A DNA stretch of 9,588 nt, from the IMG/VR virus record IMGVR_UViG_2690316346_000013; one strand, given 5' to 3'. The notes under the pieces are model-generated. The model was not told the origin of the DNA, did not search any database, and worked only from the letters and a program-made list of their open reading frames with translations. Both the position numbers and the translations under genes were made by a program. Below, piece after piece: positions 46-8,966 of the stretch (position 1 is the first letter of the stretch; each line of letters starts with the position of its first letter). This DNA comes from a virus. Its lineage: Duplodnaviria; Heunggongvirae; Uroviricota; Caudoviricetes.

Positions 46-172
46 GGGTATAAGGGGTTATGGCCACCGGACTACCAAACGGCTGCCAGCCCTCTTTCAG
101 TTTATGTGTCAGCTTTTCCGCAAGATCTGACGGCGGCGCCGCCCTGACAACATCATAGTGTTTAAATGCCAT
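1..172 (-). CDS. Small hypothetical protein (MAFKHYDVVRAAPPSDLAEKLTHKLKEGWQPFGSPV...), partial copy running off the window; its 3' end reads into IS600 sequence
   Basis: Same sequence as 5937..6110. The ATG at 172..170 has a GGTGGAAAG purine tract upstream. The native reading frame is interrupted at the IS boundary (45/46). Confidence 0.3.
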   Translation of the reverse strand, partial: MAFKHYDVVRAAPPSDLAEKLTHKLKEGWQPFGSPVAITPYTLRCTGNSGHYHLFFF

Positions 173-432
173 GGTTCTTTCCACCATCTGAAAAATAATT
201 CTTTAAAATACCTGACATGTAATACAGAAAAAACACAAAACCATACCTTAAATAAAAACCTGATTATCAAGCAGATATGCATGGATAAACTACAAGACGA
301 GATATAAACCACCCTGCATTTAAATAAACAATAAACAACATCAGAAAAATAATTCTGCTCTATGGTTTACATTCAAAAATATCATTTATACTTTTCAGAA
401 CATCACCAGCAAGGCATAAACAAGGAAACTAA

Positions 433-768
433 ATGAAGTGGATTGTGATTGATACAGTTATCCAGCCATCATGCGGAATATCTTTTTCAGTCATATGGAG
501 TAAAATAAAATTAATAATCTGGTATCAATCGGATGCTTTCTTACCTCCTGAAAGTATATTTACACTGACTCACACAGGCATCATGCTCAATAACAAAGTG
601 CTACCTGTAACCATTTACAACGTAGTACCATTCAATAAAACATTCTGGAATTCAATCAAAAATAGCCAGGAATGCCCTACAAATACAGATAACGTATTGA
701 ATGAATGCTTTAATAACCGTTGCACTCTGCAAATATGTCCTTATGGACTAAAACAACAAAGTCCATAA
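433..768 (+). CDS. Hypothetical 111-aa protein, Cys-containing C-terminal region, no family recognised
   Basis: ORF-track ORF with a good RBS (AAGGAA about 6 nt before the ATG). It follows a long AT-rich intergenic region and is followed by a perfect 8-bp GC hairpin. Codon usage is AT-rich, with 6 AUA codons by my count. Duplicated at 6371..6706. Confidence 0.5.
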
Positions 769-800: not shown

Positions 801-1025
801 AACAGCCCCTCCGGAGAGGGGCTGGAGAGTGGCGCTATGTGCCATTGCATGGTGCCGGGTGCCTCCCGGTGAATTCAGTACCAGCACCTGAATCCGCGAT
901 TATCCCATATACCTACTCGCTGATTGCCCCTCCGCACAGGGGGATTCACCATGCCAGTTTCTTTTAACAAACTCCCCGCAAACCAGACAACAGTCAACCG
1001 CCTGAATTGTGAAGTATTTAAAAAT
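801..1025. repeat. Hairpin-dense ~225-bp element, copy A (also 3497..3718 and 6739..6963)
   Basis: Four consecutive GC-rich stem-loops: 804..823 (agcccctc-cgga-gaggggct, perfect 8-bp stem), 855..869, 873..893 and 927..942, in otherwise AT-rich DNA. The copy at 3497..3718 differs by a handful of substitutions and a 1-nt deletion in the first stem, and has different flanks on both sides. Confidence 0.6.
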
Positions 1026-1215: not shown

Positions 1216-1569
1216 CTACCCCAGATGAGTAATCCGAAGTTCATCCATACCACAGGTCCTGGCTATTCTGTTGTACTCCTGAACAAGAGCAAATAATTCT
1301 GAATTAGCAACCATGAACTCATCGCAAACCCTCTGTATAGCATCACTATTCAGAATAATAACGTCTCTTCCCGAAAGACGATCAGGAGTACAGAACAAAA
1401 CTGTCAAACGGCTGAAGGCCTTTGCTCGTGCTGCATTGACTATATCAATACGCTGCCTAAGGATGAAACACCCCGACGCCTCATCAATATTCACTCTACC
1501 CACACCATATGAATGATAAATATTTAATGCTGAAAAAACCATTAGACCGTATAACAAACACTCAATCAA
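1216..1569 (-). CDS. Hypothetical 117-aa protein, TTG start (internal ATG at codon 10 possible)
   Basis: ORF-track ORF whose translation looks protein-like (…[33 protein letters not shown]…). It is rich in rare Arg/Ile codons (AGA, AGG, AUA). Duplicated at 7154..7507. Start codon is uncertain. Confidence 0.4.
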
Positions 1570-1772
1570 TACTTAACAGAACTTTTATTAGTGCCAACTA
1601 TAAAGTGCTAGAATATTTTATCAATAATGGATTGGTTGATGTAAACAAAAAATTTCAAAAAGCAAATAGTGGGGACACTATGCTTGACAATGCAATGAAA
1701 AGCAAAGATTCAAAAATGATTGATTTTTTATTAAAAAATGGAGCAATATTAGGCAAACGATTTGAGATATGA
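1509..1772 (+). CDS. Ankyrin-repeat ORF fragment (87 aa), probably truncated or chimeric
   Basis: The translation contains ankyrin-like repeats: ...[22 protein letters not shown]... and [28 protein letters not shown] (G-x-T-x-L-x-x-A...LL-x-x-GA pattern). Only the first 81 nt lie inside the duplicated block; the repeats are encoded in unique DNA at 1590..1772. The start overlaps the 117-aa ORF on the opposite strand. Confidence 0.4.
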
Positions 1773-2109: not shown

Positions 2110-2412
2110 ATGAGCAGAAAAACCCAACGTTACTCTACGGAGTTTAAAGCCGAAGCCGTCAAAACGGTTCCTGAAAATCAGCTTTCGATCAGTGAAGGCG
2201 CTTCCCGATTATCTCTTCCTGAAGGCACTTTAGGACAATGGGTTACCGCCGCAAGAAAAGGGCTCAATACACCAGGCTCCCGCACAGTGGCTGAGCTGGA
2301 ATCTGAAGTTATGCAACTGCGTAAGGCTTTAAATGAAGCACGACTTGAGCGAGATATATTAAAAAAAGCAACAGCGTATTTTGCACAGGAGTCGCTGAAA
2401 AATACGCGTTAA
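2110..2412 (+). CDS. IS600 transposase OrfA (HTH DNA-binding part), 100 aa
   Basis: RBS GAAGGAG before the ATG. N-terminal HTH followed by a leucine-zipper-like region, typical of IS3-family OrfA. Ends just after the A7G frameshift motif. Confidence 0.85.
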   Translation: MSRKTQRYSTEFKAEAVKTVPENQLSISEGASRLSLPEGTLGQWVTAARKGLNTPGSRTVAELESEVMQLRKALNEARLERDILKKATAYFAQESLKNTR

Positions 2413-2447
2413 TCGAACAATGGCGACAACAATTTCCCATTGAAGCG

Positions 2448-3266
2448 ATGTGTCAGGTATTTGGTGTATCCAGGAGCGGTTATTACAACTGGGTACAGCA
2501 TGAACCCTCAGACAGAAAACAAAGTGATGAGCGGCTAAAACTGGAGATTAAGGTGGCACATATCCGCACTCGCGAAACATATGGAACCCGGCGGCTCCAG
2601 ACGGAGCTGGCAGAGAATGGCATCATCGTTGGTCGTGACCGACTGGCACGTCTTCGTAAGGAGCTAAGGCTACGCTGTAAGCAGAAACGCAAGTTCAGAG
2701 CGACTACGAACTCGAACCACAATCTGCCAGTTGCGCCAAATCTGCTGAACCAGACGTTCGCTCCTACAGCACCAAATCAGGTCTGGGTGGCGGACCTGAC
2801 GTATGTTGCCACACAGGAGGGATGGTTGTACCTCGCTGGCATCAAAGATGTTTATACGTGCGAAATTGTCGGCTACGCCATGGGAGAGCGCATGACAAAA
2901 GAGCTGACAGGTAAAGCCCTGTTTATGGCGCTCAGGAGCCAGCGCCCACCTGCCGGGCTAATCCACCACTCTGATCGAGGTTCACAGTACTGCGCATACG
3001 ATTACCGGGTCATACAGGAGCAGTCTGGTCTGAAAACATCAATGTCGCGTAAAGGTAACTGTTACGACAACGCTCCGATGGAAAGCTTCTGGGGAACGCT
3101 GAAAAATGAGAGCCTGAGCCACTATCGTTTTAATAACCGGGATGAAGCCATCTCAGTAATACGGGAATACATTGAGATTTTCTACAATCGTCAGCGTCGT
3201 CACTCTCGTCTGGGGAATATCTCCCCGGCAGCCTTCAGGGAAAAATATCATCAGATGGCTGCTTAA
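2448..3266 (+). CDS. IS600 transposase OrfB (DDE catalytic domain), 272 aa as annotated; normally expressed as an OrfAB fusion by -1 frameshifting
   Basis: The orfB frame is open upstream to the A7G site at 2361..2368. The protein looks like an rve-type integrase core (…WVADLTYV… HHSDRGSQY… CYDNAPMESFWGTLK…). Confidence 0.85.
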   Translation: MCQVFGVSRSGYYNWVQHEPSDRKQSDERLKLEIKVAHIRTRETYGTRRLQTELAENGIIVGRDRLARLRKELRLRCKQKRKFRATTNSNHNLPVAPNLLNQTFAPTAPNQVWVADLTYVATQEGWLYLAGIKDVYTCEIVGYAMGERMTKELTGKALFMALRSQRPPAGLIHHSDRGSQYCAYDYRVIQEQSGLKTSMSRKGNCYDNAPMESFWGTLKNESLSHYRFNNRDEAISVIREYIEIFYNRQRRHSRLGNISPAAFREKYHQMAA

Positions 3267-3496
3267 AAAAAGAACAAATGGTAGTGTCCGCTATTGCCAG
3301 TACACCTCAGGATAGCGGTCATGTGATGCCGGTTTCCCGGTAACTCAGCACCGGTATCTGAGTCAACGTTTTCTCTACTGGGTCATTTCCGATACGCCCT
3401 GCCTGCTGACAGGCTTTCATCACATCTGAAAATATAGCACCCTGACTGATACTGTAGTACCTAAGGTTCCAGAAACTGTGATGTATCCGGCACAGA

Positions 3497-3718
3497 AAAG
3501 CCCCTCCGGAGAGGGCTGGAGAGTGGCGCTATGTGCCATTGCATGATGCCGGGTGCCTCCCGGTGAATTCAGTACCAGCACCTGAATCCGCGATTATCCC
3601 ATATACCTACTCGCTGATTGCCCCTCCGCACAGGGGGATTCACCATGCCAGTTTCTTTTAACAAACTCCCCGCAAAACAGACAACTGTCAACCGTCTGAA
3701 TTGTGAGACATTTAAAAA
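3497..3718. repeat. Hairpin-dense ~222-bp element, copy C (diverged copy of 801..1025)
   Basis: Alignable with 801..1025 across its whole length. Differences include gagaggggct to gagagggct, catggtg to catgatg, aaaccagacaacagtc to aaaacagacaactgtc, and gaagta to gagaca. It abuts the tRNA operon terminator. Confidence 0.6.
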
Positions 3719-3753: not shown

Positions 3754-3830
3754 TGGCGCGTTGTACTGGATTCGAACCAGTGACCGATTGCTTAGAAGGC
3801 AATTGCTCTGTCCGGCTGAGCTAACAACGC
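3754..3830 (-). tRNA. tRNA-Arg (anticodon UCU), phage-type
   Basis: Manual cloverleaf, 77 nt: acceptor GCGTTGT/ACAACGC, D-arm GCTC...GAGC, anticodon arm ATTGC-CTTCTAA-GCAAT, T-arm ACTGG-TTCGAAT-CCAGT, then G-CCA. Confidence 0.8.
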
Positions 3831-3843
3831 ATGATGCAGATAA

Positions 3844-3920
3844 TGGACCGCCATCGGGGACTTGAACCCCGCGCAGCCAGCTTCGAAGGCTGGCGCTCTT
3901 TCCTGATGAGCTAATGGCGG
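3844..3920 (-). tRNA. tRNA-Arg (anticodon UCG), phage-type
   Basis: Manual cloverleaf, 77 nt: acceptor CCGCCAT/ATGGCGG (unusual C1-G72), D-arm GCTC...GAGC, anticodon arm CCAGC-CTTCGAA-GCTGG, T-arm CGGGG-TTCAAGT-CCCCG, then T-CCA. Confidence 0.7.
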
Positions 3921-3927
3921 TATGTGA

Positions 3928-4003
3928 TGGTGGCCCTTGCTGGATTTGAACCAGCGACCTGGCGATTATGAGTCGCTCGCTCTCACCACTGAGCTAAAGG
4001 GCC
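3928..4003 (-). tRNA. tRNA-Ile2-like (anticodon CAU, ileX/ileZ type, probably lysidine-modified to read AUA); tRNA-Met not excluded
   Basis: 76 nt. Strongly resembles E. coli ileX as I recall it (GGCCC.TTAGCTCAGTGGT.AGAGC..GCGACTCATAATCGC..GGTCGCTGGTTCAA.TCCAGCA.GGGCCACCA). Anticodon loop is CTCATAA. Confidence 0.8.
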
Positions 4004-4043: not shown

Positions 4044-4844
4044 TCATCCGTTCTGGCTGACTAAATCCTGTACTTCCCGAACCGTCTGCTCAAAACGTTC
4101 AGTCTCCAGCTCAACGCCAATTGCACGACGCCCGAGCGCCAGTGCCGCTTTCACTGTCGAACCCAACCCCATGAAAAAATCTGCAATCAGGTCACCCGGA
4201 CGACTGCTAGCGCTGATTATCTGCTGCAGCATTTCTGCCGGTTTTTCGCACGGATGTTTCCCGGGATAGAACTGCACCGGTTTATGCGTCCACACATCGG
4301 TATACGGCACCTGCACCGTCACGCCAAAATACCGCCGCAGATGTTTATATTCACTCAGCAGCTCCGCATACTGCCGGTTCAGTGAGGTATACGTATCCAC
4401 CAGCTGGTGGTGGAGCTTTTCCAGTTCACCACGCCGATGCTTCTCTTCTGCCACCCGGGCAAACAGCGCCTGTAATTTCAGATAATCGCTTTCATTCGGC
4501 AACTGCCACTGACCGGCACTGAACCAGTGCGACACCATGTTTTTCTTTCCTGTGGCATCTGCAATCTGTTTTGCCGTTATCCCCAGGGCAGCTCGCGCAT
4601 CACGAAAGTAAGAAATCAGCGGGGCCATCACATGCTGTTTCAGTGCACTGCCCTTCGCCGCATACCCGGCATCTTTCGGACGATACGGCCCCTGATAATG
4701 TTCCGCGAACAGAATGCGCTCTGTGGCGGGGAAATACGCCCGCAGGCTTTCCTTGTTGCATCCGTTCCAGCGTCCGGACGGCTTCGCCCAGATAATATGG
4801 TTCAGCACACTGAAGCGTTCACGCATCATGATTTCGATATCAGA
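4044..4844 (-). pseudogene. 5'-truncated copy of the DNA methyltransferase (N-terminal ~87 codons including the DPPY motif replaced by IS600)
   Basis: Matches codons ~88..352 of the intact gene at 7908..8966. Homology stops at 4844, one base before IS600-derived sequence. No start codon or catalytic motif IV remains. Confidence 0.75.
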
Positions 4845-4845
4845 A

Positions 4846-5983
4846 TGAAAATCAACTTTCGATCAGTGAAGGCGCTTCCCGATTATCTCTTCCTGAAGGC
4901 ACTTTAGGACAATGGGTTACCGCCGCCAGAAAAGGGCTCGGTACTCCTGGTTCCCGCACGGTGGCTGAACTGGAATCTGAAATTCTGCAACTGCGTAAGG
5001 CGTTAAATGAAGCTCGCCTTGAGCGAGATATATTAAAAAAAGCAACAGCGTATTTTGCACAGGAGTCGCTGAAAAATACGCGTTAATCGAACAATGGCGA
5101 CAACAATTTCCCATTGAAGCGATGTGTCAGGTATTTGGTGTATCCAGGAGCGGTTATTACAACTGGGTACAGCATGAACCCTCAGACAGAAAACAAAGTG
5201 ATGAGCGGCTAAAACTGGAGATTAAGGTGGCACATATCCGCACTCGCGAAACATATGGAACCCGGCGGCTCCAGACGGAGCTGGCAGAGAATGGCATCAT
5301 CGTTGGTCGTGACCGACTGGCACGTCTTCGTAAGGAGCTAAGGCTACGCTGTAAGCAGAAACGCAAGTTCAGAGCGACTACGAACTCGAACCACAATCTG
5401 CCAGTTGCGCCAAATCTGCTGAACCAGACGTTCGCTCCTACAGCACCAAATCAGGTCTGGGTGGCGGACCTGACGTATGTTGCCACACAGGAGGGATGGT
5501 TGTACCTCGCTGGCATCAAAGATGTTTATACGTGCGAAATTGTCGGCTACGCCATGGGAGAGCGCATGACAAAAGAGCTGACAGGTAAAGCCCTGTTTAT
5601 GGCGCTCAGGAGCCAGCGCCCACCTGCCGGGCTAATCCACCACTCTGATCGAGGTTCACAGTACTGCGCATACGATTACCGGGTCATACAGGAGCAGTCT
5701 GGTCTGAAAACATCAATGTCGCGTAAAGGTAACTGTTACGACAACGCTCCGATGGAAAGCTTCTGGGGAACGCTGAAAAATGAGAGCCTGAGCCACTATC
5801 GTTTTAATAACCGGGATGAAGCCATCTCAGTAATACGGGAATACATTGAGATTTTCTACAATCGTCAGCGTCGTCACTCTCGTCTGGGGAATATCTCCCC
5901 GGCAGCCTTCAGGGAAAAATATCATCAGATGGCTGCTTAAAAAAAGAACAAATGGTAGTGTCCGCTATTGCCAGTACACCTCA
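4846..5983 (+). mobile_element. 5'-truncated IS600 (equivalent to positions ~127..1264; left inverted repeat and orfA start missing)
   Basis: From ~5030 to the end it is identical to the full copy. The first ~180 bp (4846..~5030) differ at about 14 positions from the full copy and encode the OrfA variant ...GLGTPGSRTVAELESEILQ..., i.e. a mosaic of two IS600 isoforms. Confidence 0.8.
5122..5940 (+). CDS. IS600 transposase OrfB (second copy), 272 aa; the upstream orfA is only a start-less fragment (4846..5086)
   Basis: Protein identical to the orfB product at 2448..3266. Confidence 0.8.
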   Translation: MCQVFGVSRSGYYNWVQHEPSDRKQSDERLKLEIKVAHIRTRETYGTRRLQTELAENGIIVGRDRLARLRKELRLRCKQKRKFRATTNSNHNLPVAPNLLNQTFAPTAPNQVWVADLTYVATQEGWLYLAGIKDVYTCEIVGYAMGERMTKELTGKALFMALRSQRPPAGLIHHSDRGSQYCAYDYRVIQEQSGLKTSMSRKGNCYDNAPMESFWGTLKNESLSHYRFNNRDEAISVIREYIEIFYNRQRRHSRLGNISPAAFREKYHQMAA

Positions 5984-6110
5984 GGGTATAAGGGGTTATG
6001 GCCACCGGACTACCAAACGGCTGCCAGCCCTCTTTCAGTTTATGTGTCAGCTTTTCCGCAAGATCTGACGGCGGCGCCGCCCTGACAACATCATAGTGTT
6101 TAAATGCCAT
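5937..6110 (-). CDS. Small hypothetical protein (MAFKHYDVVRAAPPSDLAEKLTHKLKEGWQPFGSPVAITPYTL...), 3' end fused to IS600 end sequence
   Basis: ATG at 6110..6108 with an upstream GGTGGAAAG tract; an alternative upstream ATG is at 6125. Native sequence ends at the IS600 boundary (5983/5984); the last ~14 codons are IS-derived. Confidence 0.3.
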   Translation of the reverse strand: MAFKHYDVVRAAPPSDLAEKLTHKLKEGWQPFGSPVAITPYTLRCTGNSGHYHLFFF

Positions 6111-6370
6111 GGTTCTTTCCACCATCTGAAAAATAATTCTTTAAAATACCTGACATGTAATACAGAAAAAACACAAAACCATACCTTAAATAAAAACCTG
6201 ATTATCAAGCAGATATGCATGGATAAACTACAAGACGAGATATAAACCACCCTGCATTTAAATAAACAATAAACAACATCAGAAAAATAATTCTGCTCTA
6301 TGGTTTACATTCAAAAATATCATTTATACTTTTCAGAACATCACCAGCAAGGCATAAACAAGGAAACTAA

Positions 6371-6706
6371 ATGAAGTGGATTGTGATTGATACAGTTATC
6401 CAGCCATCATGCGGAATATCTTTTTCAGTCATATGGAGTAAAATAAAATTAATAATCTGGTATCAATCGGATGCTTTCTTACCTCCTGAAAGTATATTTA
6501 CACTGACTCACACAGGCATCATGCTCAATAACAAAGTGCTACCTGTAACCATTTACAACGTAGTACCATTCAATAAAACATTCTGGAATTCAATCAAAAA
6601 TAGCCAGGAATGCCCTACAAATACAGATAACGTATTGAATGAATGCTTTAATAACCGTTGCACTCTGCAAATATGTCCTTATGGACTAAAACAACAAAGT
6701 CCATAA
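6371..6706 (+). CDS. Hypothetical 111-aa protein (duplicate of 433..768)
   Basis: Sequence identical to 433..768, with the same RBS and the same downstream hairpin. Confidence 0.5.
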
Positions 6707-6738
6707 GGAGTTTACTCACATCTGACAAAATCAATATA

Positions 6739-6963
6739 AACAGCCCCTCCGGAGAGGGGCTGGAGAGTGGCGCTATGTGCCATTGCATGGTGCCGGGTGC
6801 CTCCCGGTGAATTCAGTACCAGCACCTGAATCCGCGATTATCCCATATACCTACTCGCTGATTGCCCCTCCGCACAGGGGGATTCACCATGCCAGTTTCT
6901 TTTAACAAACTCCCCGCAAACCAGACAACAGTCAACCGCCTGAATTGTGAAGTATTTAAAAAT
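6739..6963. repeat. Hairpin-dense ~225-bp element, copy A' (identical to 801..1025)
   Basis: Lies inside the 1,589-bp duplication. Confidence 0.6.
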
Positions 6964-6986
6964 TTCTCCCGCTAACTGATACCCGG

Positions 6987-7073
6987 CTAACAGTCTGGCG
7001 TTTTCTTTTTCAGCAACGGGAAAGCAACAACCACCACACCCGCCACCAGCACACCGTCAGCCAGCACTGACAT
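6987..7073 (-). CDS. Candidate small hydrophobic peptide (duplicate of 1049..1135)
   Basis: Identical sequence. Confidence 0.25.
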   Translation of the reverse strand: MSVLADGVLVAGVVVVAFPLLKKKTPDC

Positions 7074-7153
7074 TATCCGGCTGCTGCAATGCCATTCACA
7101 AAAACAGTAAGCAATCACTTTTTACCGTAACAGGTGATAATCCAGATATGTAT

Positions 7154-7507
7154 CTACCCCAGATGAGTAATCCGAAGTTCATCCATACCACAGGTCCTGG
7201 CTATTCTGTTGTACTCCTGAACAAGAGCAAATAATTCTGAATTAGCAACCATGAACTCATCGCAAACCCTCTGTATAGCATCACTATTCAGAATAATAAC
7301 GTCTCTTCCCGAAAGACGATCAGGAGTACAGAACAAAACTGTCAAACGGCTGAAGGCCTTTGCTCGTGCTGCATTGACTATATCAATACGCTGCCTAAGG
7401 ATGAAACACCCCGACGCCTCATCAATATTCACTCTACCCACACCATATGAATGATAAATATTTAATGCTGAAAAAACCATTAGACCGTATAACAAACACT
7501 CAATCAA
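7154..7507 (-). CDS. Hypothetical 117-aa protein (duplicate of 1216..1569)
   Basis: Identical sequence. Here it lies about 110 bp downstream of the tRNA cluster on the same strand, with no terminator between them. Confidence 0.4.
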   Translation of the reverse strand: MIECLLYGLMVFSALNIYHSYGVGRVNIDEASGCFILRQRIDIVNAARAKAFSRLTVLFCTPDRLSGRDVIILNSDAIQRVCDEFMVANSELFALVQEYNRIARTCGMDELRITHLG

Positions 7508-7617
7508 TACTTAACAGAACTTTTATTTTTGACAAACATAAAATATTTTCAACAATATCCTGAGCCAGGTATATTTCAGTATAAGGCTCTGCCGGAAGGA
7601 ATCTGGAAGAATGAATA

Positions 7618-7694
7618 TGGCGCGCTGTACTGGATTCGAACCAGTGACCGATTGCTTAGAAGGCAATTGCTCTGTCCGGCTGAGCTAACAACGC
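7618..7694 (-). tRNA. tRNA-Arg (anticodon UCU), second copy with U4.G69 in the acceptor stem
   Basis: Same as 3754..3830 except for c at 7625 (t at 3761), which turns the U4-A69 pair into a U.G wobble. Confidence 0.75.
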
Positions 7695-7707
7695 ATGATG
7701 CAGATAA

Positions 7708-7784
7708 TGGACCGCCATCGGGGACTTGAACCCCGCGCAGCCAGCTTCGAAGGCTGGCGCTCTTTCCTGATGAGCTAATGGCGG
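7708..7784 (-). tRNA. tRNA-Arg (anticodon UCG), second copy
   Basis: Identical to 3844..3920. Confidence 0.7.
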
Positions 7785-7791
7785 TATGTGA

Positions 7792-7867
7792 TGGTGGCCC
7801 TTGCTGGATTTGAACCAGCGACCTGGCGATTATGAGTCGCTCGCTCTCACCACTGAGCTAAAGGGCC
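7792..7867 (-). tRNA. tRNA-Ile2-like (anticodon CAU), second copy
   Basis: Identical to 3928..4003. Confidence 0.8.
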
Positions 7868-7907: not shown

Positions 7908-8966
7908 TCATCCGTTCTGGCTGACTAAATCCTGTACTTCCCGAACCGTCTGCTCAAAACGTTCAGTCTCCAGCTCAACGCCAATTGCACGACGCCCGAG
8001 CGCCAGTGCCGCTTTCACTGTCGAACCCAACCCCATGAAAAAATCTGCAATCAGGTCACCCGGACGACTGCTAGCGCTGATTATCTGCTGCAGCATTTCT
8101 GCCGGTTTTTCGCACGGATGTTTCCCGGGATAGAACTGCACCGGTTTATGCGTCCACACATCGGTATACGGCACCTGCACCGTCACGCCAAAATACCGCC
8201 GCAGATGTTTATATTCACTCAGCAGCTCCGCATACTGCCGGTTCAGTGAGGTATACGTATCCACCAGCTGGTGGTGGAGCTTTTCCAGTTCACCACGCCG
8301 ATGCTTCTCTTCTGCCACCCGGGCAAACAGCGCCTGTAATTTCAGATAATCGCTTTCATTCGGCAACTGCCACTGACCGGCACTGAACCAGTGCGACACC
8401 ATGTTTTTCTTTCCTGTGGCATCTGCAATCTGTTTTGCCGTTATCCCCAGGGCAGCTCGCGCATCACGAAAGTAAGAAATCAGCGGGGCCATCACATGCT
8501 GTTTCAGTGCACTGCCCTTCGCCGCATACCCGGCATCTTTCGGACGATACGGCCCCTGATAATGTTCCGCGAACAGAATGCGCTCTGTGGCGGGGAAATA
8601 CGCCCGCAGGCTTTCCTTGTTGCATCCGTTCCAGCGTCCGGACGGCTTCGCCCAGATAATATGGTTCAGCACACTGAAGCGTTCACGCATCATGATTTCG
8701 ATATCAGATGCCAGGCGATGACCACAGAACAGGTAAAGACTTCCGGCAGGTTTCAGCACCCGCCAGAACTGCGCCAGACACTGGTCCAGCCACTTCAGGT
8801 AATCATCGTCGCCCTTCCACTGGTTATCCCAGCCCTCAGGCTTCACTTTAAAGTACGGCGGGTCCGTGACTATCAGGTCAACAGAATTTTCGGGTAACGA
8901 CCGGATAAATTCCAGGCAGTCGGCGTTGATTAACTCACAACTGGATATTTTTACAGTATTAAGCAT
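7908..8966 (-). CDS. Beta-class amino-DNA methyltransferase (N6-adenine or N4-cytosine), 352 aa, phage-type orphan
   Basis: Motif IV DPPY (…DLIVTDPPYF…) near the N-terminus and motif I FxGxG (…DFFMGLGSTV…) near the C-terminus, which is the beta-class order. No adjacent restriction endonuclease candidate. Sits immediately upstream of the tRNA triplet on the same strand. Confidence 0.85.
   Translation of the reverse strand: MLNTVKISSCELINADCLEFIRSLPENSVDLIVTDPPYFKVKPEGWDNQWKGDDDYLKWLDQCLAQFWRVLKPAGSLYLFCGHRLASDIEIMMRERFSVLNHIIWAKPSGRWNGCNKESLRAYFPATERILFAEHYQGPYRPKDAGYAAKGSALKQHVMAPLISYFRDARAALGITAKQIADATGKKNMVSHWFSAGQWQLPNESDYLKLQALFARVAEEKHRRGELEKLHHQLVDTYTSLNRQYAELLSEYKHLRRYFGVTVQVPYTDVWTHKPVQFYPGKHPCEKPAEMLQQIISASSRPGDLIADFFMGLGSTVKAALALGRRAIGVELETERFEQTVREVQDLVSQNG

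Follow-up and report, generated by a model that had tools for sequence, protein, structure and literature searches.

A prophage-borne gene in an IS-riddled window is very probably iraL, an RssB anti-adaptor gene whose product carries a conserved four-cysteine tail

Organization of the locus

The window analysed here is the whole 9,588-nucleotide stretch of the virus record IMGVR_UViG_2690316346_000013. The gene under study is an open reading frame (ORF) near its left end, for which iraL is the identification that we reach below with high confidence. The features of the locus are as follows.

48..172, minus strand: 5' remnant of a DUF1737 gene (PF08410, E = 1.5e-15; equivalent copy at 5937..6125)
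173..399, no strand: AT-rich intergenic/regulatory region separating the DUF1737 remnant and iraL
366..392, plus strand: probable sigma-70 promoter, with -35 TTTACA at 366-371, a 15-nt spacer and -10 TATACT at 387-392
400..432, plus strand: iraL 5'UTR (copy 2 at 6338-6370), transcription start at 400, placed by the 5'-RACE match
422..427, plus strand: Shine-Dalgarno sequence AAGGAA, read from the sequence, 5 nt ahead of the ATG at 433
433..768, plus strand: iraL coding sequence, copy 1, with an ATG start and 111 aa plus stop; probable RssB anti-adaptor
673..747, plus strand: codons of the conserved C-terminal motif C81-P-x-N...C92...C97...C102-P-Y-G105, from family alignments
803..824, no strand: 9-bp GC-rich hairpin 3' of iraL, from a terminator scan and folding (z = -3.6 for 766-850)
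6371..6706, plus strand: iraL coding sequence, copy 2, identical to copy 1, from the ORF list and self-BLAST

Much of the preliminary description of this DNA was confirmed. The plus-strand ORF at 433..768 is present in the ORF list with its ATG start and 111 residues, the ribosome-binding site called clear is the AAGGAA at 422-427, and the product is cytoplasmic, with no signal peptide. The AT-rich region reported upstream is also there, with a GC fraction of 0.275 over 201-400 and 0.37 over 101-300, compared with 0.47-0.57 further right. The divergent small ORF said to run from 172 to 1 exists as a reading frame, but it is really the 5' remnant of the DUF1737 gene cut by an insertion sequence (IS). 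According to self-BLAST, positions 1-47 are the end of the IS3-family element that cuts this gene, and homology of the flanking DNA to IS-free genomes (O104:H4) begins at base 43.

The self-BLAST of the window also revealed a perfect 1589-bp duplication, in which 1-1589 and 5939-7527 are 100% identical. As a result, iraL is present in the window as two copies of identical sequence, spaced 5.9 kb from each other. The duplicated unit runs in the order IS end, DUF1737 stump, iraL, hairpin, DUF3927 and a 117-aa phrog_2873 ORF, and each copy of it is preceded by an IS3-family element, which we take to be IS600-like. In both copies of iraL the ORF, ribosome-binding site and start site are intact, with over 350 bp of DNA retained upstream. 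The duplication may reflect either prophage remnants that truly lie in tandem or an artefact of assembly.

Prophage context and insertion sequences

In Escherichia coli CFT073 and 042, iraL is part of a lambdoid prophage, flanked on one side by the Q antiterminator and the tRNA genes and on the other by a DUF1737/holin/lysozyme lysis cassette. This arrangement, with iraL oriented against the late operon, is the classic "moron" position. The window shares the order DUF1737, iraL, hairpin, DUF3927, tRNAs and Q with these two genomes, and the earlier suggestion of horizontally acquired DNA agrees with a gene that sits in a lambdoid prophage.

The prophage of the window is an IS-riddled, degraded lambdoid remnant. 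Two IS3-family copies with orfA and orfB, 98.8% identical, occupy 2110-3311 and 4846-5985, in addition to the further end at 1-47. The second of these interrupts a DNA methylase gene, and its orfA is truncated (41 aa at 4961..5086 versus 100 aa at 2110..2412). Two N6/N4 DNA methylase genes (PF01555, E = 8e-42) are found on the minus strand at 4044..4829 and 7908..8966; one is full length with 352 aa, whereas the other is cut to 261 aa at the IS junction. Identical prophage tRNA triplets lie on the minus strand at 3754-4003 and 7618-7867, each consisting of Arg-tct, Arg-tcg and a third tRNA with a CAT anticodon, which ARAGORN called Met and whose equivalent is annotated as tRNA-Ile in CFT073 and 042. 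The triplet would presumably correspond to the ileZ-argN-argO-type cluster that lambdoid and Stx phages carry downstream of Q.

Part of the window matches plasmid DNA. The segment 1591-2171 (ORF 1509..1772, plus strand) is 100% identical to E. coli plasmids of about 290 kb, such as NZ_CP011417.1, whose annotation there names the T3SS effector gene ospC4 (its 3' end) and an IS3-family transposase. The ORF itself matches the Shigella_OspC Pfam model at positions 235-292 of 292 only. We took these plasmids to be of the invasion type (pINV), and 1509..1772 looks like an ospC4 fragment of plasmid origin that an IS moved into the chromosomal prophage remnant.

The hairpin at 803-824 is identical in CFT073 and 042. 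In the consensus scan, an intrinsic terminator was called on the minus strand only, where TTTATATTGATTTT follows the hairpin, and no U-tract follows it on the plus (iraL) strand. The strong downstream hairpin noted previously is thus present, but its U-tract exists on the minus-strand reading only. Judged by its sequence, the minus strand of 803-824 appears to be a canonical intrinsic terminator for the late-operon direction. We speculate that, in an intact prophage, Q-modified polymerase passing this terminator would run antisense across iraL, and that such antisense transcription could work as a switch between iraL expression in lysogeny and lytic growth. The window contains three occurrences of a 225-bp segment beginning at the iraL-distal hairpin (800-1024, 3496-3718 and 6738-6962). 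The middle copy is 96% identical, follows an IS copy and has no adjoining iraL, which suggests a third prophage remnant from which iraL is missing.

With such surroundings, the two iraL copies could be decaying cargo of dead prophages, left unexpressed by the IS 350 bp upstream or inactivated by L74S, the residue at which the product departs from CFT073 IraL. The remnant state of the prophage, the truncated DUF1737 and methylase genes, the three IS copies or ends and the failure to find any holin or lysozyme/lysis gene in the window all point in that direction. However, the ORF, ribosome-binding site and start site are undamaged in both copies, and in K-12 a plasmid clone that carried the gene from -100 to its stop codon, and so 100 bp of native promoter, was sufficient to raise sigma-S (PMC4045071). 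The exact allele is present in 4016 blocks of an assembly collection and on at least 999 contigs, which suggests maintenance, and deletion of iraL in Shigella sonnei has a phenotype (PMC4045071). We therefore consider decay highly improbable; the gene is in all probability functional.

Promoter and transcript

The published 5'-RACE sequence of iraL, ACATCACCAGCAAGGCATAAACAAGGAAACCA (PMC4045071), matches 400-431 and 6338-6369 at 31 of 32 bases, with zero matches expected by chance. Reading the sequence against this mapped start, we assigned the putative -35 and -10 elements at 366..392, the -10 ending 7 nt ahead of the start site, and the original study also assigned a sigma-70 promoter to iraL (PMC4045071). 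The promoter consensus scan, which needs a spacer of 16-18 nt, did not list the mapped promoter because the best -35/-10 reading has a spacer of 15 nt; the sites that it did find were at chance level (3 found versus 3.3 expected). The view of the ORF as a real gene that is independently transcribed from its own promoter in AT-rich DNA was upheld.

The AT-rich upstream region is about 99% identical to those of CFT073 and strain 042, and no alignable similarity was found between it and the upstream region of K-12 iraM. H-NS reportedly controls iraM and iraD, with K-12 iraM being silenced. Our literature search found no test of H-NS on iraL. Silencing of iraL by H-NS, as raised in the preliminary description, is plausible, though partial at most, because transcription takes place in unstressed log phase, the growth state whose RNA served to map the start site (PMC4045071). 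Additionally, iraL is reportedly up in CFT073 lacking Fur (PMC7157518) and up by 1.6 log2 at 37 C versus 23 C (PMC12890032).

Identity of the gene

The iraL gene, formerly ycgW and c1429 in CFT073, was described as the fourth anti-adaptor gene by Hryckowian et al. in mBio in 2014 (PMC4045071). In CFT073 it lies on the potB-island prophage, and its product is 58.9% identical to IraM (PMC4045071). The protein of the window is identical to CFT073 IraL (WP_000871291.1) at 110 of 111 residues, the sole change being L74S, and the DNA is about 99% identical over a 751-bp alignment that spans the promoter, 5'UTR, coding sequence and hairpin. Counted by eye from the alignment, two differences fall in the 336-nt coding sequence and four in the 283 nt upstream. 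The published definition of iraL requires 95% identity or more to CFT073 in the coding sequence, aligned in full (100% of length), and 96% or more in the promoter (PMC4045071); the gene of the window agrees with both, in the coding sequence and in the promoter/upstream DNA. The 5'-RACE match, the CFT073 DNA identity and an upstream region unlike that of iraM identify the ORF, as far as sequence can tell, as iraL proper and not just as a member of the IraM family.

Model searches gave the family. The protein scored 162 bits against NCBIfam NF007393, "anti-adapter protein IraM" (curated cutoff 121), with protein residues 1-110 aligned to profile positions 1-113 of 114. It also matched phrog_4407 ("unknown function") over 1-111 of 111 in PHROGs; taken by itself, that label would make the protein uncharacterised, which is wrong given the iraL identity. 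In the local copy of Pfam-A no significant match was found, and a sub-threshold match to Nairovirus_NSm (E = 0.056) was set aside as chance. The exact protein is labelled "anti-adapter protein IraM [Shigella sonnei]" or "MULTISPECIES [Shigella]" in databases, and the L74S form is the Shigella allele. The same ORF carries the label "anti-adapter protein IraM" in complete E. coli genomes and phage records, and this uniform label hides a distinct IraL type that has its own promoter, induction condition and RssB-binding mode.

We conclude with great confidence that the ORF at 433..768 is iraL, a prophage-borne paralogue of K-12 iraM that encodes an RssB anti-adaptor stabilising RpoS; none of our analyses spoke against this assignment. 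Where the preliminary description had seen a novel protein that could be assigned to no family, the ORF turned out to be a known gene of the IraM/IraL/RssC anti-adaptor family, with a function shown experimentally (PMC4045071). That description had listed a confident match to a known domain with an established function among the outcomes that would speak against it, and the assignment to iraL is of that kind. Gene, product, target and physiological effect had all been published in 2014, and the structure of the paralogue in 2023.

The window gene and the CFT073 gene are the same, with the same promoter, mapped start, hairpin and prophage neighbours (DUF1737, DUF3927, tRNAs and Q); the window differs in L74S, in having two copies, each abutting an IS3-family element, and in the degraded state of its prophage. 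K-12 IraM (b1160) is a paralogue of the same length class, 61% identical over 107 aa in a gap-free alignment, with an unrelated promoter and without the four extra C-terminal residues of IraL (QQSP). That identity, the single NCBIfam model covering both types and public annotation that says "IraM" throughout would allow the ORF to be an IraM orthologue proper, induced through PhoP/PhoQ on Mg2+ starvation and clamping both RssB domains. We find this most unlikely, as the protein is 99% identical to IraL versus 61% to IraM, and the DNA upstream is the iraL promoter with its mapped start and cannot be aligned with that of iraM. Moreover, the iraL and iraM matches do not overlap and the two proteins differ in their pattern of RssB interaction (PMC4045071).

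Fold, RssB contacts and function

Residues 1-78 of the protein were modelled by AlphaFold2 with a pLDDT of 80-95. Foldseek matched the model to 8twd_A (TM 0.90, rmsd 1.2 A), with PmrD structures next, and the PDB match by sequence was the IraM chain of 8TWD (residues 1-78, RssB-bound) at E = 6e-31. The model thus indicates that residues 1-78 form an IraM/PmrD-like domain of a beta-barrel plus a helix. The structure prediction that had been recommended for what was then called an unrecognised protein returned a known fold, that of IraM (8TWD).

In the crystal structure of IraM with RssB, the beta-barrel/hairpin/helix domain (1-78) touches RssB in both of its domains and in the segmented helical linker, and keeps sigma-S off the RssB 4-5-5 face (PMC10844676). 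Ten of the 14 IraM residues listed there as contacting RssB are identical in the window protein, including five of five in cluster I, which touches the RssB N-domain. The four substitutions (T13S, L75I, H63N and I64V) are all in clusters that touch the RssB C-domain and linker, and this pattern of sequence change is consistent with N-domain-only binding by IraL. L74S adjoins contact residue 75, in helix 69-76.

The experimental work on IraL was done on the CFT073 and S. sonnei genes (PMC4045071). IraL copurifies with RssB, and in two-hybrid assays it contacts the RssB N-terminal domain only (PMC4045071). [quoted passage not shown] IraM and IraL thus differ in that the former acts on Mg2+ starvation and through both RssB domains, whereas the latter acts in log phase and, in the two-hybrid assay, through the N-domain only (PMC10844676, PMC4045071); iraM, unlike iraL, is induced by Mg2+ starvation.

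For the gene of the window we propose the same course. It would be transcribed from its own sigma-70 promoter (start at base 400) in unstressed exponential growth, and its small cytoplasmic product would bind the response-regulator-like adaptor RssB through domain 1-78. With RssB blocked, RpoS would not be delivered to the ClpXP protease, so that sigma-S would be stabilised and the general stress regulon turned on. The Shigella allele with L74S probably behaves as CFT073 IraL does, both in RssB binding and in log-phase sigma-S stabilisation, given how close the two sequences are. Two copies would be expected to raise the dose, and in a Shigella-type genome they bear on the strength of sigma-S stabilisation in growing Shigella.

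PmrD, the PhoP-activated connector protecting phospho-PmrA, has the same small beta-barrel-plus-helix fold and shares with IraL the logic of a small protein that binds a response-regulator-type protein and alters its output; it differs in its target, is 14-21% identical and has no Cys4 tail in the aligned region. A PmrD-like connector that acts on another response regulator (e.g., PmrA), instead of or besides RssB, is nonetheless very hard to credit, in spite of the resemblance to 4HN7, 2JSO and 2RQX (Foldseek probability 1.0) and of precomputed protein-collection tags that label the family PF11183 PmrD, given the low identity, the copurification with RssB and effect on sigma-S stability (PMC4045071), and the solved PmrD chains, which align over at most about 88 columns and none of which reaches the Cys tail. 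The local Pfam PmrD model matched just one of 46 family members (E = 0.003), and PF11183 gave no match to IraL at E <= 1 in local Pfam-A, which conflicts with the precomputed tags.

The C-terminal cysteine tail

The RssB anti-adaptor iraL encodes has five cysteines, four of which (C81, C92, C97 and C102) lie within the last 31 residues. This C-terminal cluster, pointed out from the sequence before any search was made, is conserved beyond chance, and its cysteines rank among the best-conserved positions of the family. A profile search that covered 1.8 billion representatives supplied 68 relatives; we left out multi-stretch proteins of 400-3000 aa that matched the profile in short beta-strand stretches only, which are probably repeat-protein noise. 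In an unselected MAFFT alignment of these relatives, the four columns are Cys in 59-63 of the 68, down to 20-30% identity, and most of the exceptions appear to be truncation or frameshift products, in which the tail diverges or ends early. By comparison, the column of C14, which contacts RssB in IraM, has Cys in no more than nine of the 68. Another alignment, in which the four Cys were the only invariant columns, was not counted as evidence because its members had been selected for having them.

Among 13 close members, C81, P82, C92, C97, I101, C102, P103 and G105 are invariant, and the residues between them vary. We describe the family by the motif C-P-x-N...C...C...C-P-[YF]-G, which is our own description and not a published criterion; the window protein contains it, and K-12 IraM has the same four C-terminal cysteines. 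The spacing of the cysteines (x10, x4 and x4) is unlike the classical CxxC knuckle. AlphaFold2 gave the Cys tail a pLDDT of 33 to below 50 with 12 sequences and of 50-57 with 46, values that neither support nor exclude an ordered metal site.

In the crystal work on IraM, residues 79-107 were removed because they were proteolysed, and the tail was called less conserved and predicted to be flexible (PMC10844676). The word "cysteine" does not occur in PMC10844676, PMC4045071 or PMC4428439, nor does "zinc" in PMC10844676 or PMC4428439, and a full-text literature search for IraM with cysteine or zinc returned irrelevant papers only. The conserved Cys4 tail is in this respect an unexamined feature of a well-studied regulatory family.

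Conservation of four cysteines in this manner is often seen in structural metal sites and redox-active clusters. We put forward, as a tentative idea that is possible but less likely than not, that residues 79-111 are no disordered and weakly conserved appendage but a Cys4 metal-binding or redox-sensitive knuckle, which would govern how stable or how active anti-adaptors of the IraL/IraM type are in vivo. If so, sigma-S stabilisation would be coupled to metal or redox status, and the knuckle would have escaped notice because the tail, being proteolytically unstable, was deleted for structural work.

Distribution

At least 80% of a 951-bp iraL segment is present in 1422 of 5426 complete E. coli genomes, roughly one in four. 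The exact sequence is found on many chromosomes, including HE616528.1, which we take to be S. sonnei 53G. According to the original survey, iraL is under-represented in EHEC/STEC (PMC4045071).

A distinct 111-aa IraL/IraM-type variant occurs in Stx2a- and Stx2c-converting phages; our literature search found no experimental work on it. The variants labelled "IraM" (1717, 2851 and the Stx2a_WGPS series) are lambdoid-borne, about 71-73% identical to IraL and a distinct sequence subtype. In most phage records the variant is unannotated, for example at 26246-26575 of NC_011357.1.
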